A stretch of DNA of 32,651 nt from a virus. Its lineage: Duplodnaviria > Caudoviricetes. Where the stretch lies: IMG/VR virus record IMGVR_UViG_3300020045_010441, positions 1 through 32,651 of that record; one strand, given 5' to 3'. Every line of letters starts with the position of its first letter. The first letter of the stretch is position 1. Below, one piece after another: positions 3,903 to 15,923 of the stretch. The notes under the pieces were generated by a model that saw nothing but the letters and a program-made list of their open reading frames with translations, had not been told where the DNA came from and made no database searches. A program made the position numbers and the translations under genes.

Positions 3903-4364
3903 TTACTTTTTCATTCCTTCACGGACGCGCTCGCCCAATGAAAGAGATTTTTTACCTTTTGGTGAATTGTAACCTTTGAGCATTTCACTTTTGAATTGCT
4001 CTTGCATGGGGTCGCCAGCTTTTAATTGCTCTGGCAATCCCTTTTTCTTTGGTGCGTTTTTAGTTGCACCGGATAAGTCTGACTCTGTTTTCTCTTTGTC
4101 TTCGACATCGGGAGCAAGACCTAGCTTTATTGATAGAGCGTTTTCTTTCGATTCTTCGCTTTCTTCTTTGTCCTCGTGCTTAGCTTCACCTTCATCGCTT
4201 CCACCAAGCCCGATAGCAATAAGAATTTTCTTCTCAGCCGACTCTTCGTTAGGGGTTTCTTGCGCTTCATGCTCCGGGCTCCCTTCTTCTGGTCCAAATA
4301 GTTTTTGAACATCAATACCTTTTTTTAACTTCAATCTGTCCATTGCCGATTTCATTGCGCTCAT
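3903..4364 (-). CDS. acidic, probably disordered hypothetical protein between portal and scaffold
   Basis: 153 aa, E/K-rich (EGSPEHEAQETPNEESAE). Start overlaps the portal stop. Confidence 0.8.
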   Translation of the reverse strand: MSAMKSAMDRLKLKKGIDVQKLFGPEEGSPEHEAQETPNEESAEKKILIAIGLGGSDEGEAKHEDKEESEESKENALSIKLGLAPDVEDKEKTESDLSGATKNAPKKKGLPEQLKAGDPMQEQFKSEMLKGYNSPKGKKSLSLGERVREGMKK

Positions 4365-6433
4365 AATTGCCCGCCTCCCTGCGGTGGAATTGGATTTTGA
4401 TTAGGTTGTCTTATTTCTGGCTCTGCGTTTTCATCAATAGGCGTTGACCCTTCGGCCAAATGAGCTTGCGACTGCGCATTCATGTCACGCGCAACGGCTA
4501 ACTCTTGGTGCAAGCCTGGGTTTAATAGCTCAACCATTGCTTGCGTGTGTTGCTCGATGTTTTGAAGCAATACTTGTTTGGCAATGTCAGACATTGACAG
4601 AAACTTGTCGGATTTTCTAATTCTGTTTTTCTCTGTAATGTGAAGTTGGTGATTGTCTAGTTCATTAACCTCTGGGGGAATGCCTTGCTCAATCATATCC
4701 ATGTCACGCTGAATTTGCGACTGATCGACTGCTTCTTCTTCCCACATACCGCCCACATCGCCATATTCGAGCAGCGATAGCACCTTTTCTCTCACCTTGG
4801 GGTCTTGTGGATTTCCAAGTAAGCCTTGCCCATAGGTGTTTAGAATTTCTTGTCTGCGAAGCACCTTAGAACTTGGAACAGTTGAGCCACGGATAACAAT
4901 TACGTCATTGTTGCCCCGAATATCTGCGCCAGTGAAGCCCTTGACATTGTGTTCCATAGACTTGCCAGAGATTTTCAGAAGTCTTTCGTTCTTATAAAAG
5001 CGCTCAGTGTAAAGAAGAAGCAAGCGCCCGACTTGTGCCCAGGCGTACTCATTTGATTCGCTAACAACGCCAACGCGGGTTTCATCTTGCTCTTGAAGAA
5101 ACGCCATACCAGCATAGGGCATTGACGCGCTTGGCAATGTCCCCCTTGAAATCTCATTGATGCCAGCAATGTCATACATCATTGATTGAAGCTTTTCTTC
5201 TTCTTGGTAGGCATATTGAGGAATTACCGGAACAGTGACCGCTTGAGGCATCCCACCGCCAGGTACAGGGTTGTATTCAATGATCTCGCCACTCTGATCA
5301 TTCATTACTTCAGTTCCCATGCCATGACCTTTGGGCGCAATATACTTACCAGCCAGAAGCTTGTTCACCCAGTCGGCTCTCTTATTAATGACGCGGTTGT
5401 ACTGATCTTGAATAGGTCTCAAGTGAGTGATTACTGATTCAGAATTATACTTGCCGCCAATAATAACATCGTCAAACTTCACAAAAGGAATTTCCCCGGC
5501 GGGAAGCTCTTTGTTCATCAACAAAACGCCGTTTGCTGTAACAATTAACCGACCATTAGGATATTTTTCAGAAGGTCGCTCATAATAGGCTAACTCAATC
5601 GCTGAATTTTTCATCTGAGCAGTTGCACCGCTGCCAGCGCCGCCCGAAGTATTCATTGCATTGATTCGCATTTCATATTGCGTTGATAAAAGCCAGGGGC
5701 CTTCTTCTTTTACAAGAGCGCCTCGGTCGGGATAGTGTGAGCGAAAATAATCTAGCTTTCTTACCTTCGCCTGAACGAACCATTGGCATTCTTCAAATGT
5801 TTTTCCAAGTGGGTCTGCGTACATTTCAAAAGCCGACACAACATCGGCTCGAATATCACCTTCGCGTGTCAAATTTCCGGTAGAGGGGTCAAGAATTTGA
5901 CGGCCCATCATTGGGTCGAAGCTAATCTTCATGTAAGCATGACCGCATTGCTGTAACCACATATAAAGAAGCAAGCGTTTTTGATTAATTCGCTCCCGGT
6001 CCCAGTGCATATTTATTATTTGAAGAGAGAGCCTTGCCGCGTCTTTGTCTTCGGTCGCATTTGAGTTGGGCCGAACATCATAGCGAGGTGGGTTTTTCGC
6101 AAGACGCGCAAGGCGGTTTTGAACAGTTGGCAAAATCTTATTTACATGCAAACGATTTCTAGAAAGATACCTTGCCGCTGTGTTGTTCGGTCGAAACTGC
6201 TTTGTAGTTGTGTCATAAACGACCGAGTCGTACCCCAACAAATATGCCGTATTGGTCATCCAAATGCCCTCGGCGCTAACTCTTGCGCCAGAGCCTCGAA
6301 CGTCACTTATTTTCTGCTTAATGTAGCCAACCAAATCAATTTCATCTTTTGATTGATCATTTACGCTTTCAACTTTAGGTGCTCCGCTTTGAGCGCCCAT
6401 CATTCTGTCCATTACTCCATCGAACAGTCCCAT
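4361..6433 (-). CDS. portal protein (P22-like)
   Basis: 690 aa between the terminase nuclease gene and the scaffold. Motifs NKILPTVQNRLA, LRPIQDQYN, DIAGINEISRG. GAGG SD. Confidence 0.88.
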   Translation of the reverse strand: MGLFDGVMDRMMGAQSGAPKVESVNDQSKDEIDLVGYIKQKISDVRGSGARVSAEGIWMTNTAYLLGYDSVVYDTTTKQFRPNNTAARYLSRNRLHVNKILPTVQNRLARLAKNPPRYDVRPNSNATEDKDAARLSLQIINMHWDRERINQKRLLLYMWLQQCGHAYMKISFDPMMGRQILDPSTGNLTREGDIRADVVSAFEMYADPLGKTFEECQWFVQAKVRKLDYFRSHYPDRGALVKEEGPWLLSTQYEMRINAMNTSGGAGSGATAQMKNSAIELAYYERPSEKYPNGRLIVTANGVLLMNKELPAGEIPFVKFDDVIIGGKYNSESVITHLRPIQDQYNRVINKRADWVNKLLAGKYIAPKGHGMGTEVMNDQSGEIIEYNPVPGGGMPQAVTVPVIPQYAYQEEEKLQSMMYDIAGINEISRGTLPSASMPYAGMAFLQEQDETRVGVVSESNEYAWAQVGRLLLLYTERFYKNERLLKISGKSMEHNVKGFTGADIRGNNDVIVIRGSTVPSSKVLRRQEILNTYGQGLLGNPQDPKVREKVLSLLEYGDVGGMWEEEAVDQSQIQRDMDMIEQGIPPEVNELDNHQLHITEKNRIRKSDKFLSMSDIAKQVLLQNIEQHTQAMVELLNPGLHQELAVARDMNAQSQAHLAEGSTPIDENAEPEIRQPNQNPIPPQGGGQL

Positions 6434-6651: not shown

Positions 6652-6956
6652 CAGTACACCTTTTCGCTTTCTAGTTTGTCCAAGTCTTCTTTTTCACCGT
6701 CTACATAGATTCTAACAGCGGGAATGCCGTCAGTGAAAGACCTGGAGTTAATGTCTGGAGTTAAGGCCATGTAATCTTCTTCCGCTAGTTCAACAAAAGT
6801 TTGACCCGATTCTCTTGCTGCTTCAATAATTTCTTGAGCTTTTTTCTTACCAACTGGGGCTTTCGTCTTGCGCTTCTTCTCTGGCAAACTTGTGGGCGTT
6901 TCGACGATACCAGGCTTCGTAGGCATCTGCATTGGCGGGAGTTGGTTCTTTATCAT
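6651..6956 (-). CDS. hypothetical protein (start uncertain; probably ATG 6956 rather than 7103)
   Basis: AAGGA precedes ATG 6956 (MIKNQLPP...). Its stop overlaps the next start. Overlaps the last 110 nt of the terminase nuclease gene. Confidence 0.55.
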   Translation of the reverse strand: MIKNQLPPMQMPTKPGIVETPTSLPEKKRKTKAPVGKKKAQEIIEAARESGQTFVELAEEDYMALTPDINSRSFTDGIPAVRIYVDGEKEDLDKLESEKVY

Positions 6957-7653
6957 CTTGATTTTCCTTTTCAGGGTAAGAAACAATTGATTCAATTTGT
7001 GACAGAGCGTCAATAAGATCATCGTGGGAGCCGCGAGGAAATTGAGAAAGCTCCATTTCAAGGTCCACAAGGCCCTGTGCAAGAAGTATTTGCCCCCATT
7101 CAAAGCGTGGGACCAATGTTCTAATGCGCATTTCTTTCGTTCTATCTGTGCCAGGGTGAACGTCCTTTAAAGGGATTACTGTTTGGCGCTTTCTCATTTC
7201 TTCACTTAAAAGGTAGATTAGCGCTTTTTGATATGCAACCGACTCGATACCTATTCCGAAGGGCCGATGCGCCGCGTTTAAGTTGAAAATCAAGTCAATG
7301 ATTTGAGTCGGGGTCATTCTTTTACGCAAAGCTGATCTAACGAACCAAGTCCCATTGCAATCTGCGTCTACAATGACAATTGCTGTGTAATCTGCACCAA
7401 CGTCTTGTGAAATAGCGGGGTCAATGAAGATAAACGTGCGACACCCGACCGGGACGTGGTGATAGTATTTAATCCAATCTTTCTTAAAAGTCTGTTCAGA
7501 GTCGGGAATGATCTCGTTTTGATATTGGTTGGCGTAAAGATAAGAGCCCATTGTTTTGTGAGCGCCCAAAAGAAATTCGTGAGTTAATTTTTCTGGAAAT
7601 AGCAGAGAGCCATCGTCACGAACTGCTTTTTCGTACACTATTGACCAAGACAA
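6847..7653 (-). CDS. terL: terminase large subunit, C-terminal part (lid segment plus RNase H-like nuclease)
   Basis: GSLLFPEK...YANQYQNE lid segment; nuclease motifs FIDPAIS, DYTAIV, IESVAYQKAL, KEMRI, FPRGSHDDLIDAL. Own TTG start with TAAGGA SD. Confidence 0.92.
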   Translation of the reverse strand: MSWSIVYEKAVRDDGSLLFPEKLTHEFLLGAHKTMGSYLYANQYQNEIIPDSEQTFKKDWIKYYHHVPVGCRTFIFIDPAISQDVGADYTAIVIVDADCNGTWFVRSALRKRMTPTQIIDLIFNLNAAHRPFGIGIESVAYQKALIYLLSEEMRKRQTVIPLKDVHPGTDRTKEMRIRTLVPRFEWGQILLAQGLVDLEMELSQFPRGSHDDLIDALSQIESIVSYPEKENQDDKEPTPANADAYEAWYRRNAHKFAREEAQDESPSW

Positions 7654-7654
7654 T

Positions 7655-7972
7655 TTATTTCCTTAGCAAGTAAATCGCAGCCAACAAAACAACAACGCCC
7701 CAAATGATTGCTGAAACATGACTTTTCTTTTTAAATTCAAGATCAATCATGTTTTCAATCCCATCTCTTTCGATTTCTAAGTTGCGAATTGCTTTTTCCA
7801 CGCCGTTCATTGGGACAATTTTTCCCTTAGACAATTTCCAAAAATGAGGTGGGACATTTTTAACCACTGAAAGGTCTGGGTTAACTACAACGCACGAATG
7901 CCCATGATATTTCTTGCCAGCATCGCCGTGAATTATTCTCGCATTGTTTCTTGTGAAAACTACGGTAATCAT
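7655..7972 (-). CDS. hypothetical tail-fibre-associated protein with C-terminal transmembrane helix
   Basis: 105 aa, abuts the fibre stop; ends in IIWGVVVLLAAIYLLRK. Confidence 0.7.
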   Translation of the reverse strand: MITVVFTRNNARIIHGDAGKKYHGHSCVVVNPDLSVVKNVPPHFWKLSKGKIVPMNGVEKAIRNLEIERDGIENMIDLEFKKKSHVSAIIWGVVVLLAAIYLLRK

Positions 7973-10900
7973 TTATGCCTTAAAAATAGTAAGCCAATGG
8001 TTCACGCCGCTATTCGATGAGCTTAGTGTTTGATTTGAGTTGGGCCTTATTGATAGTGTTTGCCCCGCCGTTAAGTACGCAGAGCCGTTTATTTGTGCAA
8101 ATTCATTACCATAAGTTGAACAGGTTTTGTATGCTGCCCCTTCTTTATACATAACAAGCCTGTCGCCCCAGGTCGTAGTGCATCTAGCTATTCCCATGAA
8201 AATCCAATTCCCGGTTGACGGTGCTTTGAAAATTGTCCCATTCCAAGAGCTTGTTGCGTCTTGCTCTGCCGTTGTCCATTCAACATTGGTCACAGCCGCA
8301 GTCAGTCCTATTCCTGTGTTTGTTGTGTAGTTTAAATAAGTCGACCTTTCAACCCACGAAGGATTAGCCGCAGCGCCACCGCTTGTTAAGATTTTCGTCG
8401 TGCTCGCATCAGGGGCTAGAACTACAGCAGTCACGCCAGAGCCAGAGAGTAAAACGCCGTATTGATTCGCTGCTGCTATTAAATTGCTTGTTGCATAGAC
8501 AGCGCTTGTTGCGCCATTGGCAAAAACAGCGCTTGTCGCTCCATTAGAAAATACGGAATATGTAGAGCCCTGGGAATAAACCGAAGACGTTGCGCCGTTA
8601 GCAAACACAGAACTAGTTGCCCCGATTGCATAACCAGTAATTGACCCAGTTGCTAGACCGATGTTGGGAGTCGTGAAAACAGGCGAGTTAAGCCTTGCCA
8701 CGTTACCAGTCCCAATGCCTGTACCAGTGTACTCATCAGAAGTTAAGTGGTAGTATTGCGCTGTAACACCCGACCCGGTGCCGCCCTGTAGCCCAGCCAA
8801 GTCACCATGTAACACAACCAAAGGTGTTTGAAATTGGGTGTTTCTAGTTGTCCCGTCGTAAGTAGTTGTGAGCGTTGTATTGTTGTTTGATGTCCCGAAG
8901 GTAATAGCGCCAAGCTTGTCAGTTGTGGCAATTGCGAAAGCGCCTTGCGTTGTTGTAAACGTGTTAGCTGCATAGTTCGGGCTTATCGAGGTGATTGCTG
9001 AAGACGTTGCGCCAAATAATTTAAACCACTTGTTATAGGTGACGCCAGTTTCATTAACATAAGTTGATAGCGTTGAGATTGTAACAACACTTGAAGAAGT
9101 GAAAGCTGTTATTTGATAAATACCTTGTGGCGTTTGCAAATAGCTCGCAACGGTATTTGTGGCTGAAGCATCGCCAGCAACAAAAGGCGTTGCACCTGTC
9201 ACAGTTGCAGTTCTACTTGTCCCTGTTCCTGTGGTTGTAACAGTTCCGGTCGCTGGTATTACTTGATAGATGTTTCTTGTAATTGTAGTGACTCGCCCGC
9301 CGCCTGTAGAGTTAACACCCGCATAGCTTGTAAAAATCCAAGAGCCAGCGTCAATTGAAGCTTTGCCCAGTGCTGTGTCATAAAGCCAAGCTGCTGCTGC
9401 AACGGTATTTGTTGCAAGTGATGTTGATGTTGTTTGCTCTGCGGTCGTGACAGGCGTTCTTGATAGGGTGTTGATTGCAAGAGCGTTATTTGTGCTGGTT
9501 GCCGTAATTGTCGGAGTTGCGTTGTAGAAATTAACGCCAGCCCCAGCCGACACAGTTGACGCCTGGTTGACCCACTTGGTGCCGTTCCATGCAAGTCTAT
9601 CGCCAAGCGTGGGAGTTGATGCGTCAACGTCAGAAAGCGAGGTCAAAGAAAGCGCTGGAGTTGGAAAAACGCTTTCACAAGCGCAGCCAATCTCTTGAAA
9701 TCCACTTGCCCCCTGTTTTACAATTACCCTAGCAACAAGTATCGCTGTTTCGTGATGCAAAATCTCTGGCAAATCTGCGGTCATAAACGGTTGAGCCGTT
9801 CTTGCTTCGCCAAGTGACGCATAAGCTTCTTGACCGTATATCATGAAGGGCTTTGCTGGGGTGTTCACCACTAAGTAAACCCAATAAACGCCGTACTCAC
9901 CAACTGCCAAGTTTGCAAGGCCAGTCGAAACATCATTATATTGAGAATTGGAAATCTGTGTTTCGCCAGGAACATAAACCCAAGCTGCGCCGTTGTAATA
10001 AACAGAAGTAAACGTGTCAACGCCACTTGTGTCGATTGCGGGAGTGGTGAAGCGGGTCAAGCCGTTCCAATAAATCCCGGCAGAAATCTCGAACTTTCTA
10101 GAAGCAAGCTCTGTTAGCTCTGCGGCGCTATCCATTTCCGGCGCGTTAGGCATAGTTTCTTCATTATATTGAATCATTAACCCAGCATGGTCGCCAACTG
10201 TGTGCTTAACTGTTTCATTTATGTAAAGCTCAGTGCCTATGCGATAAACAGTTGCCAGGTCTGTATATGTAAATGGGTTGGGGGCTTCGGTCGTAGAAGT
10301 TTCAACTTGGGGCGACCCAGAGTTGTAGTTGACGTAAATATAATTAAGGTCGCCGTCAACCATTGACAAATTTGTAACTGCTGCCCAATCAAAGAAAAAC
10401 AAAAGCCCCAGTGCATTGGCGGCGTTTCTAATTGCGCCCTGTCCAGCATCAACATCAACTGTCCCATCGCCATTATCTGTTATTGACCCGCCGTTCACCC
10501 ATCCGGTTGAGTGGAAAAATGTCTGCATATCTTGAGCAGTTGAATAAGTGGAGCCGGGCAATGCTGCGAGAATGATTTGCGTAGACCCAGCTTGACCAGT
10601 GAAAGTCACAGAAGCGGTTGCACCTGATGCGTAAACGGCGCTTGTGGCCCCCGAAGCATAGACAGCCGATGTTGCCCCGCTTGCATAGACTGCTGATGTT
10701 GCTCCTTGGGCGTACACAGAAGACGTTGCGCCTTGTGCGAAAACAGCAGACGCAACCGCCCCATCAAATGCCCCTACAAATGTTGTGCCTGTAACAAGCC
10801 CGCTAAATGTCCCGCCAGCAATAGGCATTTTCAATGAATCGAAATAAGACAAATAATTGAAAGCATCGCCGATTGACGTTGTGACCCCAATGGTCCCATT

Positions 10901-11278
10901 AACTACAGTGTAGCCAGCAAGAAGCTTTGAGATAACCGCAGAGTTGCCAAGCGTGACGTTGCCAGTTACTCCAATTGTAGCTTCGCCCCACATTGAAGAA
11001 CCAACTGCGATGTTTGAAACACCGCCAATAAAGATTCCACCTTGAGCAAGCGATGGAAGTGGTAACCCGCTAGGGTCAAAGCCAAACGTAACTTTCTGTG
11101 TTGCAAAATCACCTGTGATTGTCAGCGCAGAACTACCGCTTGTGAAGGTAACCGCTGCGGCTGGCATGGTGGCGCTTGGTGAAGTACCAAAGTCTGTCTG
11201 AATTGTAGCGATTGAATTTGAGATTGCTGGGTCTAGCCCTGGGTCACCGCTTGATAAAACTTTTATATTCAAACTCAT
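7973..11278 (-). CDS. tail fibre / receptor-binding protein with C1q-like tip
   Basis: 1101 aa, T/G/A/S-rich. Fibre motifs LTSLSDV..GDRLAWNGTKWVN and HGDLAGLQGG..YYHLT, two blocks of 9-aa repeats, C-terminal WNGTIFKAPSTGNWIF...YLTAGQTL. Confidence 0.85.
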   Translation of the reverse strand: MSLNIKVLSSGDPGLDPAISNSIATIQTDFGTSPSATMPAAAVTFTSGSSALTITGDFATQKVTFGFDPSGLPLPSLAQGGIFIGGVSNIAVGSSMWGEATIGVTGNVTLGNSAVISKLLAGYTVVNGTIGVTTSIGDAFNYLSYFDSLKMPIAGGTFSGLVTGTTFVGAFDGAVASAVFAQGATSSVYAQGATSAVYASGATSAVYASGATSAVYASGATASVTFTGQAGSTQIILAALPGSTYSTAQDMQTFFHSTGWVNGGSITDNGDGTVDVDAGQGAIRNAANALGLLFFFDWAAVTNLSMVDGDLNYIYVNYNSGSPQVETSTTEAPNPFTYTDLATVYRIGTELYINETVKHTVGDHAGLMIQYNEETMPNAPEMDSAAELTELASRKFEISAGIYWNGLTRFTTPAIDTSGVDTFTSVYYNGAAWVYVPGETQISNSQYNDVSTGLANLAVGEYGVYWVYLVVNTPAKPFMIYGQEAYASLGEARTAQPFMTADLPEILHHETAILVARVIVKQGASGFQEIGCACESVFPTPALSLTSLSDVDASTPTLGDRLAWNGTKWVNQASTVSAGAGVNFYNATPTITATSTNNALAINTLSRTPVTTAEQTTSTSLATNTVAAAAWLYDTALGKASIDAGSWIFTSYAGVNSTGGGRVTTITRNIYQVIPATGTVTTTGTGTSRTATVTGATPFVAGDASATNTVASYLQTPQGIYQITAFTSSSVVTISTLSTYVNETGVTYNKWFKLFGATSSAITSISPNYAANTFTTTQGAFAIATTDKLGAITFGTSNNNTTLTTTYDGTTRNTQFQTPLVVLHGDLAGLQGGTGSGVTAQYYHLTSDEYTGTGIGTGNVARLNSPVFTTPNIGLATGSITGYAIGATSSVFANGATSSVYSQGSTYSVFSNGATSAVFANGATSAVYATSNLIAAANQYGVLLSGSGVTAVVLAPDASTTKILTSGGAAANPSWVERSTYLNYTTNTGIGLTAAVTNVEWTTAEQDATSSWNGTIFKAPSTGNWIFMGIARCTTTWGDRLVMYKEGAAYKTCSTYGNEFAQINGSAYLTAGQTLSIRPNSNQTLSSSNSGVNHWLTIFKA
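8483..8636 (-). repeat. 9-aa (27-nt) imperfect tandem repeat, block 2 of the fibre
   Basis: YAIGATSSVFANGATSSVYSQGSTYSVFSNGATSAVFANGATSAVY (boundaries approximate). Confidence 0.85.
10615..10755 (-). repeat. 9-aa (27-nt) imperfect tandem repeat, block 1 of the fibre
   Basis: SAVFAQGATSSVYAQGATSAVYASGATSAVYASGATSAVYASGAT (boundaries approximate). Confidence 0.9.
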
Positions 11279-11520
11279 TTAAGCACCGCCCAAGCTACAA
11301 TTGAATGATCGGAACTGCTAGTCGATGAAATGTCAAAGCTTGCATGAAACACCCTTGCACTAAGAAAGCCTTGCGTTCCTCTTGCGTCTACGACTGAAAG
11401 AAACACCAAAGAGTCGTGAGCTAAGTCTTCGCAATAAACAACTGCCTCACCCGCGACAAGCTCCGCTGTGCCGCAAATGTAAGGCTTACTTTGCTGTGCA
11501 ACTGGCTTTTTCCAAAACAT
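11275..11520 (-). CDS. small beta-rich virion/fibre-associated protein (start corrected to ATG 11520)
   Basis: MFWKKP...GTAELVAGEAVV...SFDISSTSSSDHSIVAWAVLK. ATG overlaps the upstream TAA (TAATG); its stop overlaps the fibre start. Confidence 0.7.
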   Translation of the reverse strand: MFWKKPVAQQSKPYICGTAELVAGEAVVYCEDLAHDSLVFLSVVDARGTQGFLSARVFHASFDISSTSSSDHSIVAWAVLK

Positions 11521-11969
11521 TAAGTCAAAACCGTCCAGGTCCCAACGCTGGCAATTGCTTGCCATTGTGTTGACCCAACTGCGGCCAATGTTATTGCATT
11601 CCCAAGCGTTGTGCATCCTACCCAGCCGCCAAGAGTCGAGCCATCTGCGGCGTTTTGTATTGTTTGACTCGCGCCTGCGTTTATTTGCATTCCGTCTGCG
11701 TCCGTGACAGCAAACGTAAAGTTAAGACCAGACGATGCGCTTGGAAGCTTGTAAACGCACAATTGGGTTGCGCCTGTATTTGTTACCATTGCCCCAGACT
11801 GCGATGCGGCAAGTACAAGCTGGCTAGCTCCGGGAGTGATGCTATTTATTGCTGGAAAAACATTTGCAAGAGAATAAATCAGCGATGAGCCGTACTGCTG
11901 AATCAATGAAGTGCCCTGTTCAGCGCTAATCCCTTGTATTGTGCTCGAAACTTTTATGTTCAAGCCCAT
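11520..11969 (-). CDS. putative minor tail/fibre protein
   Basis: 149 aa; LPSASSGLNFTF...ITLAAVGSTQW resembles beta-sandwich virion domains. N-terminus resembles that of the long fibre. Confidence 0.72.
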   Translation of the reverse strand: MGLNIKVSSTIQGISAEQGTSLIQQYGSSLIYSLANVFPAINSITPGASQLVLAASQSGAMVTNTGATQLCVYKLPSASSGLNFTFAVTDADGMQINAGASQTIQNAADGSTLGGWVGCTTLGNAITLAAVGSTQWQAIASVGTWTVLT

Positions 11970-12259
11970 TATGTCCCCGCAGTCTTGCCGCGAATAATGT
12001 GAGCGATTGAAGTTGCTCCGGTTGAGGAAAGAAAAAATTCAACTGGCCCGCCGAAGGTTAGCGCTTCAGAACTTCCCAAGACATAACCTGTTCCTGCTGT
12101 TTGAGCAGAGCTACCAAGAATTTCAAGCGTGCCGCCCCCGGCATATTTCAACGTCAGGTTAGCAACGCCAACGCCCGCGGTAATTCCCGCCACATAACCG
12201 CCACTAGTGCCAATGTTTAGTCTTTCAGTTTGCAGAGTCCAAATATCGTCTGATCTCAA
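11969..12259 (-). CDS. small Gly/Thr-rich putative virion protein
   Basis: 96 aa, TTG start with AAGGGGG SD; stop overlaps the next ATG. Confidence 0.7.
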   Translation of the reverse strand: MRSDDIWTLQTERLNIGTSGGYVAGITAGVGVANLTLKYAGGGTLEILGSSAQTAGTGYVLGSSEALTFGGPVEFFLSSTGATSIAHIIRGKTAGT

Positions 12260-12295
12260 AATTTCCCCCTTGTGGTTTACAAGCCTAATCGTGTG

Positions 12296-13033
12296 TCAAA
12301 CATTTTTTAAATTCAACTTTTTCCTTTGTTCGTCCGAAATTTCAGACCTTATGATATGACCAATGCAGTCTGACGCACTGTACCTAGTCCCAACAATGAC
12401 CAATGAACCGTTCGGCTCAAGCAATGAAATACTCATCTTGTAATAGTTTATTACCTTTTCGCAGCCTTCTTTGGTCAATGAATTGTTTAAGCTGTTCAAA
12501 TCGTCGTGAATTATGACGTCATAGTGTTGGCCGACCTTAACAGTTCCAACGCCGCCGCAAGTGATAGTTGCTTCTTTGAGCGTCTTAGTCCTTTGGTTAA
12601 CAATGATCTCGCTCTCTGACCATGTTGTGGGGCTTTTAAAGTCACCAAATACTTCCGTGATCTCTGGATTTTCAAGGTGAGATCTAATCTCTCGAAGAAA
12701 GTTTTTAGAGTTGGTGTAAATCTCACTTGAAATTAATATTCGGATGTTGGGATTTCTCAAGATTAGCCAAATAGGATAAGCAACGCTGCAAATAGAGCTT
12801 TTAAGCGAGCCCCTTGGCATAACAACAAGCTTTCTGGGCGTGTTTGCTTCTAGCGCATCAATTACGCCGCTGTGTGTCCTTCGATTGATGTCTTTGAAGT
12901 TACACAAGACCCTTGCTGTGTAATAAAGCGAAGCTCTAAACTCATCACGCAACGCTTCGTTAACCAAATCAATCCGTTGCTTGGGGCTAAGGTCTTGAGA
13001 TAAGCCTTCTATTGTGTCGATTATGTCCACCAA
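12296..13033 (-). CDS. terL: terminase large subunit, N-terminal ATPase core (start uncertain: TTG 13033, GTG 13030 or TTG 13093)
   Basis: Walker A MPRGSLKSS, GVGTVKVGQHYD, Walker B YDVIIHDD, coupling motif VIVGTRY; stop follows about 28 codons later. Confidence 0.92.
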   Translation of the reverse strand: MVDIIDTIEGLSQDLSPKQRIDLVNEALRDEFRASLYYTARVLCNFKDINRRTHSGVIDALEANTPRKLVVMPRGSLKSSICSVAYPIWLILRNPNIRILISSEIYTNSKNFLREIRSHLENPEITEVFGDFKSPTTWSESEIIVNQRTKTLKEATITCGGVGTVKVGQHYDVIIHDDLNSLNNSLTKEGCEKVINYYKMSISLLEPNGSLVIVGTRYSASDCIGHIIRSEISDEQRKKLNLKNV

Positions 13034-13052
13034 ATAATTAAAGGGGTAAAAA

Positions 13053-13811
13053 TTGGAAAGATCAATCTCGGTTATTGTTGCAACGTACTGCAAAGAGAAT
13101 TTAGACTACTTGAAACTAACTTTAGAAAGTCTCAAAAGACAGGAAAAAGTAAAGCCGGAGGTGATACTTGTCTCAAGCGGTGATTTTCAACCTGATGTCG
13201 GCAATCTTTGTTATTTACATTTTCACAGCGATACTCGTTTACATTACGCTGAAGCGATAAACCGTGGCATTGAAATGTCAAAGGGCGATTACATTGTAAT
13301 CTCAAACGACGATTTGGTTTACACAAAGTATGCGCTTTATACAATGGCGGCTAGCATTCAAGGCGGTCATGCAATCTTAAATCCCTTGTCAAACTGTGAC
13401 AATATGTGGGCCTTTGTTACCCCATTTACTTTCGAGCATGAGGGTAAGACGATTGAAATGGACAAGCGCTTTTATCGCTGGGATGAATGGGCTCCCTACC
13501 ATGAATCAATGATGAATGCTGTTAGCCCTTTTAAGTATATGCTGATTGATAGAACCCTACAGGGTAATTGCTTCTATTGCACAATGATGCCAAGAATTAC
13601 CTGGGAGCTAGTTGGAAAGCTTGACGAGAAGTTGCGCACTGGCCTTGAAGATAAAGACTATTCTCGTAGGGCAATGCTCAAGGGAGTGAAAAGTTACATC
13701 GCTGCTCATTCATTGGTCTGGCATTTCGGCGGGGTATCAGCAGAGAAAGCAATGGACAATTTAACTAAAATGGAAAACCAAGCGTACTATGATTTGAAGT
13801 GGAATTATTAA
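13053..13811 (+). CDS. family 2 glycosyltransferase
   Basis: ISVIVATY, YAEAINRGIEMSKGDYIVISNDD (DxD-like), LDEKLRTGLEDKDYSRR, VWHFGG. TTG start with AAGGGG SD. Confidence 0.9.
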   Translation: MERSISVIVATYCKENLDYLKLTLESLKRQEKVKPEVILVSSGDFQPDVGNLCYLHFHSDTRLHYAEAINRGIEMSKGDYIVISNDDLVYTKYALYTMAASIQGGHAILNPLSNCDNMWAFVTPFTFEHEGKTIEMDKRFYRWDEWAPYHESMMNAVSPFKYMLIDRTLQGNCFYCTMMPRITWELVGKLDEKLRTGLEDKDYSRRAMLKGVKSYIAAHSLVWHFGGVSAEKAMDNLTKMENQAYYDLKWNY

Positions 13812-13818
13812 ACCAGCA

Positions 13819-13855
13819 ATGGGGGAGGGGAGCAGCGACTATCCCTTTCCCCCAT
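13819..13855. terminator. stem-loop at the convergence of GT2 and terS
   Basis: ATGGGGGAGGGGA ... TCCCTTTCCCCCAT inverted repeat lying between and overlapping the two convergent stops. Confidence 0.55.
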
Positions 13856-14369
13856 CACCGGAGGTTTTTTCTTCTTTGATCTCTCGAAGCCTTGCAAGGG
13901 CCTTCTTGTATTTGTCAGTATCGGGGTCAATAACATCTTCGACCTTCACTACATCTTTGACTTTTCCTATCATTCTATTCAAGAGAAATTCCATTTTCTT
14001 TTCGTCGCCCTTAGCCATAGCAACGTGCCAAATCTTAGCCATAGCAGTCTCAAGGGCAGTTGAGTCGGGGTCTTGATACAAGTCTCTGATTTCTTCTTTT
14101 GTCAAAGTTGAGAATTTTAGCGAGATTCTAGCAAACTCTTTTTGAGTCATGATTGTCGCAAGCTTGTCTGCAATTGGTATGCGTGGCCTACCTGGACCGC
14201 CCACATTGCCCTTAACAAATTTCCTATCCACCTTCTCAGTGAGTAGTGCCCTTCTCTCTGGCTGTTCCTTCTTAACTTCTTCGGGCTTTGGCTGTTCTAT
14301 CTGCGGCGCAGCTGGCAATTCAATAGGCAAGTTTTTAGGTTTTCTTTTGAACCAATCTAGAAATGACAT
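13839..14369 (-). CDS. terS: terminase small subunit (putative)
   Basis: KFVKGNVGGPGRP motif and AMAKGDEKKMEFLLNRMIGK helix, typical of DUF5681-like TerS. Lies upstream of the TerL ATPase gene. Confidence 0.7.
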   Translation of the reverse strand: MSFLDWFKRKPKNLPIELPAAPQIEQPKPEEVKKEQPERRALLTEKVDRKFVKGNVGGPGRPRIPIADKLATIMTQKEFARISLKFSTLTKEEIRDLYQDPDSTALETAMAKIWHVAMAKGDEKKMEFLLNRMIGKVKDVVKVEDVIDPDTDKYKKALARLREIKEEKTSGDGGKG

Positions 14370-14998: not shown

Positions 14999-15132
14999 GC
15001 TTCCCCCAAGCTGAATGAAAGTGTAATGAGTGGTAGTTCTAGCATCAGCGTGTGAAGCATTTGTTCCTTCACCACTAACACCCCCAGTCTGATTCTTCGA
15101 TGCAGCGCAATGTTCACGCTTATTATTATCAT
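14995..15132 (-). CDS. 45-aa small ORF coupled at both ends (not in ORF track)
   Basis: MIIISVNIALHRRIRLGVLVVKEQMLHTLMLELPLITLSFSLGEA*; ATGA overlaps with both neighbours. Confidence 0.4.
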   Translation of the reverse strand: MIIISVNIALHRRIRLGVLVVKEQMLHTLMLELPLITLSFSLGEA

Positions 15133-15923
15133 TTCTTTGAGCCTATTAAAACCATGACATGACCTTCGCAGTACTTAAAGTCGTATTTTGGGAAAAGCCT
15201 TTGCGCTTCCATGTTGAAATCTTTTGGGGTGAAAGTTTTAATGTGGCCGAGTTCTCTTGTTTCCCAGTTGGGCATTGACCCGGCAAAGTTGTATTTAGGT
15301 GTCGATAGAATAATCCACTCTGGCTCTGACTCTAGCTGCGCAGCGTAATGCGTCAAGTCCTCTGGGTTCCAAAGATGTTCGATTATTTCACAAGCGACGA
15401 AGATTGTCGGGCTTGTTGCGTTTTCTTGCCAATCGACTTTTTGTTTTATCTCATCAAGCCGATCATCTGAAAGATCAACGCTTTTATAGGTGAAGTCGCA
15501 ACCGCGTTCTTTTAGTCCAAGCGGTAAGTAGAAATTGCCAGCGCCAAGGTCAAAGATATGTGGCTTTATTTGCGCATTGTTGTAGCCTTGCACGATTTCT
15601 AAAATTGCATGGGAGCGAGGCCACGCAAGATCAAATTCTTGTGCGCCATTTAGGAATTTATAGCTTGTGTTTTTTGCGTAATCTTTGTTTGTGTAGAGTT
15701 GGCGATAAAGCGCCTTTCTCATTTCTGTAACTTCTTTTGGTTCATTGTCTCGATACCAGCCGGGGAGTTGATTCAGCATTTTGAAAGCAAAAGCAATTTC
15801 TTCGCTGTTAATCATCATATCAACGGCTTGAAGATAAACGTCTAGATTGAAAACCCTAGACCGACCTTTGTTTTCTGCTGTGTTTTGATCGAAAGTATCA
15901 AATGAGTATTTGTGTTCAAACAA
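15129..15923 (-). CDS. class I SAM-dependent methyltransferase (small-molecule/glycan type)
   Basis: IFDLGAGN motif I, YKSVDL, CEIIEHLWNP, IILSTP, GHIKTFT. No DPPY/NPPY or PC DNA-methylase motif. TTG start with GGGGA SD. Confidence 0.78.
   Translation of the reverse strand: MFEHKYSFDTFDQNTAENKGRSRVFNLDVYLQAVDMMINSEEIAFAFKMLNQLPGWYRDNEPKEVTEMRKALYRQLYTNKDYAKNTSYKFLNGAQEFDLAWPRSHAILEIVQGYNNAQIKPHIFDLGAGNFYLPLGLKERGCDFTYKSVDLSDDRLDEIKQKVDWQENATSPTIFVACEIIEHLWNPEDLTHYAAQLESEPEWIILSTPKYNFAGSMPNWETRELGHIKTFTPKDFNMEAQRLFPKYDFKYCEGHVMVLIGSKK

Follow-up and report, generated by a model that had tools for sequence, protein, structure and literature searches.

The locus described here raises the question of whether a phage can build its genome-packaging motor from a large terminase subunit (TerL) that is encoded by two distant genes. 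It lies in a stretch of 32,651 nucleotides (nt), hereafter the window, which comprises positions 1 to 32,651 of the virus record IMGVR_UViG_3300020045_010441 (Duplodnaviria; Caudoviricetes). The window is a podovirus-like phage contig, a linear fragment of about 85% completeness with its late genes on the minus strand. TerL is generally described as a single polypeptide that comprises an ASCE ATPase, a lid, a linker and a nuclease (PMC5727402; papers cited by PMC number are drawn upon here from excerpts of their text). The arrangement in the window is very probably a different one: two separately started genes, divided at one fixed point throughout a large clade of uncultured phages, whose products reassemble one to one without being joined, a strand of the nuclease chain (TerL-C) being predicted to complete the sheet of the ATPase chain (TerL-N).

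The elements concerned are the following:

12296..13030, minus strand: TerL-N, 244 amino acids (aa), the ATPase (ASCE) core with its last helix and a short free tail
7660..7665, minus strand: candidate Shine-Dalgarno-like TAAGGA for TerL-C, 6 nt ahead of the TTG, recognised from the sequence
6847..7653, minus strand: TerL-C, 268 aa, TTG start at 7653, N-terminus MSWSIVYEKA; residues 3-7 are the predicted last beta-strand of the ATPase, about 8-50 the lid and linker, and 51-228 an RNase H/RuvC-like nuclease

A sequence-only reading had placed TerL in two genes 4.6 kb apart, and both open reading frames (ORFs), the motifs quoted for them, their order and their strand were verified. TerL-N carries a Walker A motif PRGSLKS (72-78), a Walker B motif ending in D176-D177 and the coupling motif GTR (214-216), and it stops at 12296, 28 residues past GTR. 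Its longest ORF begins at 13093; the database gene call (P0001) is 244 aa long from a GTG start at 13030, with an alternative TTG start at 13033. TerL-C follows after 4,642 nt with the nuclease acidic residues D78, E137 and D211/D212/D215. It begins one base after the TAA of a 105-aa gene, and the separate TAAGGA-TTG start attributed to it, 1 nt past the upstream stop, is present in the sequence.

Together the halves possess what characterises a TerL: an ASCE ATPase with Walker A, Walker B and coupling motifs, an RNase H/RuvC-like nuclease with its acidic triad, and a position in the head module, the portal, scaffold and capsid genes coming after TerL-C. A single reading frame is what they lack, given the stop at 12296, the fresh start at 7653 and no single full profile match. 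Alignment to intact TerL, which had been proposed as a check, gave collinear tiling twice. PHROG_38 is matched at 266-464 by TerL-N 43-250 (E 2.9e-32) and at 468-715 by TerL-C 3-238, and a profile of 79 one-chain relatives is covered at 9-224 by TerL-N and at 226-462 by TerL-C. TerL-C also matches PF17289 (E 3.5e-6). Two half-length TerL families, PHROG 4758 (243 positions) and PHROG 5573 (250 positions), match the two halves and have similar ends.

One split point among relatives

The half-length state recurs among relatives. The best 120 of 775 TerL-N homologues measure 211-261 aa and the best 120 of 1,152 TerL-C homologues 257-286 aa. These first searches could not see most full-length proteins, and longer homologues were therefore searched separately (98 matches). 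The best eight of the 98 are ATPase halves that contain a large internal insertion; of the remaining 90, 89 match both halves in one chain. With the exception of one protein, P0249, the one-chain long homologues reach at most 247 bits on the clade ATPase profile; full-length split members reach 287-391.

The earlier reading had suggested a search for relatives with the same breakpoint and variable inserts, and such relatives exist. The split falls at the same loop in 69 of 80 distinct loci that hold both halves (window included), the 11 others being more distant and one-chain; this ratio is not a population frequency, because the loci were retrieved with split-half queries. The split loci have gaps from -1 to 8,689 nt, with a median of about 2.3 kb, and the start codon lies just ahead of a conserved Trp in 68 of the 69. 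Among 80 metagenome loci, partly on the same contigs, 78 ATPase frames stop at most 45 aa past the match, two leave the contig and none is fused. One split member lacks an insert, its stop and start overlapping by one base (L045:9971-11454).

Could the split be an artefact, that is, a misassembly, a decayed gene or an excisable DNA element whose removal restores terL? The contig is a linear fragment, which leaves some room for this. Yet the same cut is found in independent assemblies from three collections, and complete relatives are split too: five of them contain exactly two half-matches each and no intact terL, and two of the five have direct terminal repeats. Against decay stands purifying selection on both halves in relatives. 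For both halves, pN is far below pS in each of 20 close pairs of relatives, and nonsynonymous and synonymous divergence (dN/dS) in the least saturated close pair is 0.014/0.42 and 0.007/0.13. Regarding excision, not one of the 20 largest direct-repeat families, from a total of 47, is represented at both junctions, and the near relatives L080 and L083 differ in gap content and size (299 nt and 3,895 nt, respectively) while keeping both halves. We therefore regard an artefact, decay or excision as highly improbable.

Conservation of the catalytic residues is nearly complete. P72, R73, G74, K77, D176, D177, T215 and R216 of TerL-N, as well as the acidic residues and N42, Q43 and N46 of TerL-C, are kept in all of the 120 top homologues, and W3 in 118 of 120. 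The window shares at most 60% identity with any relative; for its own copy the evidence thus consists of open frames and intact motifs.

Do the halves descend from the same TerL? Trees were built from 99 rows, 63 split and 36 one-chain (a chosen subset), with support reruns on 40 of the 99; L056, L123, L085 and L142 were omitted as partial or intein-bearing, and L057 and L081 as near duplicates. For each half, the 63 split rows together with P0249 form one clade in the 99-row trees (Shimodaira-Hasegawa-like approximate likelihood ratio test, SH-aLRT, 99 and 100), and support for the split clade in the 40-row trees is 100/100 and 100/99. The N and C trees agree (r 0.53, a value that no permutation of 2000 reached). 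Between them, starred clades are recovered in 12 of 15 and 14 of 18 cases, and none conflict. An origin from unrelated TerL clades, which had been named as a possible refutation, is contradicted by these well-supported and congruent clades. The split would have arisen once, in the ancestor of the clade.

P0249 is a one-chain TerL of 508 aa on a single 2.1-kb contig, and it nests in the split clade in all four free trees. Approximately unbiased (AU) tests do not reject a position outside the clade (p 0.884, 0.529 and 0.351); it may thus be either a re-fusion or an early one-chain sister.

GenBank phage matches are all below 60% identity, and the two regions opened have an apparently one-chain TerL at the match. 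In the GenBank record MW202554 (L242:3929-6466), two genes of 551 and 229 aa, one gene apart and before the portal, are both labelled terminase large subunit. A prokaryote-genome scan returned three loci in three unrelated metagenome-assembled genomes, which we infer to be binned phage contigs and from which we assign no host.

Position of the cut and predicted fit of the chains

Where the chain is interrupted determines what each product would need from the other. The fold and motifs of the window halves are those of one-chain TerLs such as PhiV-1 (PDB 8dgc), T4 gp17, P74-26, D6E and HK97, and P0249 provides a one-chain model close to the split proteins (mean predicted local distance difference test, pLDDT, 90.6). 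In this model the coupling-motif strand (204-214) is followed by a helix (222-230), a loop (231-245) and a strand (246-250). The loop at the cut comprises about 14 residues, with confidence lowest at 233-236, and strand 246-250 is the equivalent of WSIVY in the window. The solved ATPase domains of T4 and P74-26 align to the P0249 model through residue 292 (against 2o0h: Z 20.3, root-mean-square deviation (rmsd) 2.8, 235 aligned), and residues 1-225 of the TerL-C model align to D6E TerL 190-415 (Z 15.1, rmsd 3.0, 200 aligned). The D6E lid includes Y213 and R224, and its linker spans 230-241 (PMC5727402). Nuclease-only crystals begin at about TerL-C residue 50; the TerL-C profile, run against the sequences of solved structures, gave no match. 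From the structure alignments and the D6E lid and linker it follows that a segment of about 50 residues of the ATPase domain is encoded by the nuclease gene. The cut is predicted, on the basis of the models, to lie in a surface loop of the ATPase core, past its last helix and ahead of its last strand, which agrees with the earlier placement of the break inside the ATPase domain with the lid left on the nuclease.

The proposal that the chains would have to co-fold is likewise favoured by modelling. Folded alone, TerL-C shows no strand at residues 3-7. In the two-chain model, these residues contact TerL-N 66-70, which form the strand that runs into Walker A, and P72/R73 contact Q43/Y44. This heterodimer model scores 0.89, against 0.36 for the best of three controls; 116 of 157 solved pairs and 2 of 215 mismatched ones attain the mark applied to such scores, which is only roughly applicable, as own alignments were used. 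The runs agree in at least 90% of contacts, with a partner pLDDT of at least 77.

We therefore propose that TerL-C would donate the last strand, beside the Walker A strand, together with the lid to TerL-N, and that the conserved NQY segment of the lid is predicted to contact the P-loop arginine R73. Each motor subunit would be a 1:1 TerL-N/TerL-C heterodimer that replaces one TerL subunit, a stoichiometry suggested by the predicted need of each ATPase core for a strand and lid from the nuclease chain. The lid, hinge and nuclease would stay covalently linked, so that the coupling of ATP to the nuclease survives. In T4 gp17, the lid-hinge-nuclease track relays the state of the ATPase to the nuclease (PMC3074133), and the cut may be tolerated because this track stays in one chain.

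A looser arrangement was also considered, in which a ring of TerL-N would bind TerL-C weakly, or would use it as a sub-stoichiometric nuclease whose level is set separately. Separate genes with separate starts, up to 8.7 kb apart, could allow it, and the TerL genes of the cluster AY phages discussed below are cut at the domain boundary, so that a nuclease can indeed be a free chain. In the present clade, however, some 50 residues that belong to the ATPase domain in solved structures are carried by TerL-C, whose first strand and NQY-N lid motif are almost invariant, as expected of an obligate interface. Subdomain II of T4 gp17, moreover, regulates ATP hydrolysis (PMC3074133). A loosely bound partner is thus improbable. 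The earlier suggestion of independently adjustable amounts of ATPase and nuclease is not supported either, since the core is predicted to need the strand and lid of the nuclease chain, implying 1:1 pairing, and the retention of the lid-hinge-nuclease track in one chain also argues against separately tuned enzyme levels.

Rejoining, precedents and consequences

Two unjoined chains would not be needed if the halves were rejoined after transcription or translation. At the RNA level, cis- or trans-splicing by a group I or II intron, or ribosomal bypass, would yield a one-chain TerL. The halves are exactly collinear, and the terminase genes of mirusviruses are trans-spliced (PMC12768974). In mirusviruses and alloherpesviruses, as in the window, the halves are encoded far apart, but joining there occurs on RNA via spliceosomal sites near Walker B and gives a one-chain product (PMC12768974). 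The present clade offers little for such a process to act upon. The window and eight loci contain no Rfam match, and thus nothing recognisable as a group I or II intron; no base is conserved past the TerL-N stop codon in 63 loci; and the 120 nt ahead of the TerL-C Trp are unconserved except for the start codon in 62 loci. The gap varies from overlap to several kilobases, full of coupled genes, and TerL-C retains its own start. Rejoining on RNA is for these reasons very unlikely.

Protein trans-splicing through a split intein has hardly any chance of being correct, although inteins do invade this gene. The eight best long homologues are ATPase halves with an insertion that carries intein-type Pfam accessions. 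We take PF14890 and PF14528 to be families of this type. These eight insertions lie inside TerL-N, and the proteins end 1-26 residues past the ATPase match, with no nuclease. The tails past E230 (1-31 aa) and the leads before Trp3 (0-19 aa) are unconserved and too short for intein halves, and the intein end motif occurs in 0 of 120 homologues. As an observation in its own right, split ATPase halves with an intein-type insertion (P0241-P0248 and L085:8663-10471) use two sites, one near Walker A and one near Walker B.

Several points weigh against two unjoined chains conserved throughout a clade. The clade is not purely split, because the one-chain P0249 falls inside it, and the congruence of the N and C trees would also follow from physical linkage. 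The loci were retrieved with split-half queries, as stated above. Selection and the lack of an intact terL are seen in relatives rather than in this incomplete contig. Rejoining is disfavoured through absent sequence signals, in a clade without a cultured member. The complex model, finally, speaks for fit and not for binding, because split-gene halves tend to pass by their likeness to solved TerL.

Cultured phages provide the closest precedents. In KellEzio and Kitkat (Arthrobacter cluster AT, Kelleziovirus), TerL is encoded by gp4 and gp10/gp11 with five or six genes between; the split TerL of cluster AT is mentioned in one sentence of PMC5513430. In KellEzio, an ATPase gene of 260 aa and a nuclease gene of 328 aa are annotated, separated by five genes. 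As in the window, the halves are dispersed and match PHROG_38, and the nuclease gene includes the lid (from profile position 246). Unlike the window, KellEzio belongs to another lineage and scores about 10 bits on the clade ATPase profile, where full-length members reach 287-391. Judged by eye, its gp4 keeps the last ATPase strand, so that the cut falls one strand later and no strand donation is needed. Its 1.8-kb gap is occupied by a resolvase gene and small genes, without F0 or fibre-like cargo (see below). The arrangement in the window would work like that of KellEzio and is of neither its lineage nor its cut point. A two-gene TerL is also known from the cultured cluster AY Arthrobacter phages BillyTP and BlueShadow (PMC11920828, PMC12820723). 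There TerL likewise occupies two genes; in BillyTP, by contrast, these are adjacent and overlapping, belong to the PHROG_9 family and are cut at the boundary between ATPase and nuclease, gp3 beginning 14 residues ahead of the first catalytic Asp and gp2 retaining the lid.

The background given with the earlier reading had named introns, inteins, homing endonucleases and splicing as the known interruptions of TerL, and it missed these annotated two-gene TerLs of cultured actinophages, one of them with five intervening genes. The cultured actinophages demonstrate that a phage can grow with a TerL dispersed over two genes. Other split essential enzymes of phages, namely Aeh1 nrdA, phage 25 and 44RR gp43A/B and the T4 gene 60 region, also reassemble and work (PMC2988022); unlike the window, these involve other enzymes, split by a homing endonuclease or a short spacer.

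The principle of a two-gene TerL is therefore already on record in cultured phages. Our literature searches, which covered text outside supplements and subscription papers, found neither this clade nor a split with strand donation described, and the available excerpts of PMC11946847, PMC7824862 and PMC4837284 do not mention a split TerL. We did not find in print a fixed cut within the ATPase with predicted strand donation, a clade of this size or a gap with variable cargo.

What would such a motor mean? In models of packaging, TerL is a single chain whose lid transmits ATP hydrolysis to the movement and cutting of DNA. A clade whose core is unlinked to its own last strand and lid would imply that the core-to-lid link is dispensable, the lid-to-nuclease link being kept, and the need for a covalent core-to-lid link becomes directly testable. 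The two chains would form a two-part reagent: by mixing them, one could titrate ATPase activity, the formation of rings and stoichiometry, with P0249 as a one-chain control. Annotation and TerL-based phylogeny are affected as well, as phages of the split clade look truncated.

We speculate, with considerable doubt, that the split is kept across hundreds of phages for gating: the core would be inert until the nuclease chain docks and contributes its strand and lid, leaving two harmless parts until then, or the whole TerL would be hidden from terminase-sensing host receptors, and P0249 would serve as a natural re-fusion control. Our searches found no published work on TerL escape from Avs3-type sensing.

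The gap and neighbouring genes

Five genes lie between the TerL halves, all on the same strand:

11969..12259, minus strand: 96-aa protein of family F0, the most constant gap occupant; no Pfam or PHROG match
11520..11969, minus strand: 149-aa protein; no Pfam or PHROG match; repeat family D12
11275..11520, minus strand: 81-aa protein with a K1-lyase C-terminal (tailspike-type) domain, from a TAATG-coupled ATG at 11520
7973..11278, minus strand: 1101-aa Gly/Ala/Thr/Ser-rich protein with two runs of 9-residue repeats (27-nt DNA repeats)
7655..7972, minus strand: 105-aa protein of family F3 with a C-terminal hydrophobic stretch, directly ahead of TerL-C

These genes had been described as intact and tightly coupled, and their junctions bear this out. 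The first starts 36 nt past TerL-N behind its own AAGGGGG, and the following stops and starts overlap or abut (in order TAATG, TAATG, ATGA and TAA-ATG). The third gene is taken as 81 aa from the coupled ATG and not as the 113-aa mechanically called ORF that encloses it, on which PF24146 was matched (E 1.3e-11).

The label of a tail-fibre cassette fared less well. It is plausible, and the 81-aa neighbour carries PF24146; the 1101-aa protein itself has no Pfam or PHROG family and a best Atlas score of 0.80, so that 'tail fibre' is a guess. We consider it likely to be a putative virion fibre or decoration protein at the virion surface. The 149-aa and 1101-aa proteins begin alike (M-G/S-LNIKV), with 87% identity over 23 nt (11948-11970 and 11257-11279), and the similar starts could possibly be a common attachment peptide.

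Across the 69 split loci the gaps hold 284 genes, 277 of them same-strand and 134 singletons. The F0 family (about 100 aa) occurs in 57 of the 69, often in two copies; Atlas matches of the F0 protein reach 0.95, to unnamed viral clusters. F3 (105 aa) occurs in 13 of 69 and is always the last gene. Large gap proteins in relatives match tail, spike, head-decoration or virion-structural PHROGs in 7 of 38 cases, and no homing endonuclease family was found among the 54 gap proteins scanned. Two genes placed beyond the gap in the window have homologues within it in relatives: 13 gap genes are same-strand homologues of the glycosyltransferase at 13053-13811, and 19 are homologues of 15129-15923. After the split, the gap would have become a landing place for accessory and virion-surface genes of the late operon.

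Further genes frame the locus:

13839..14369, minus strand: candidate small terminase (terS), by position; no Pfam or PHROG family match
13053..13811, plus strand: glycosyltransferase (PF00535), back to back with TerL-N
4361..6433, minus strand: P22-like portal, downstream context (PF16510, E 1.1e-24)

The candidate small terminase has an N-terminal motif of the FxKGNxGGPGRP type, which we take to fit such a protein. The glycosyltransferase, placed between the candidate terS and TerL-N, starts about 20 nt from TerL-N (13030-13053) on the opposite strand. Promoter and terminator scans stayed at chance level (16 against 13.2 and 14 against 9.4, respectively). Directly past the capsid module, two tandem paralogues (395-838 and 851-1282; 143-147 aa) both begin with MAIVNRDL.

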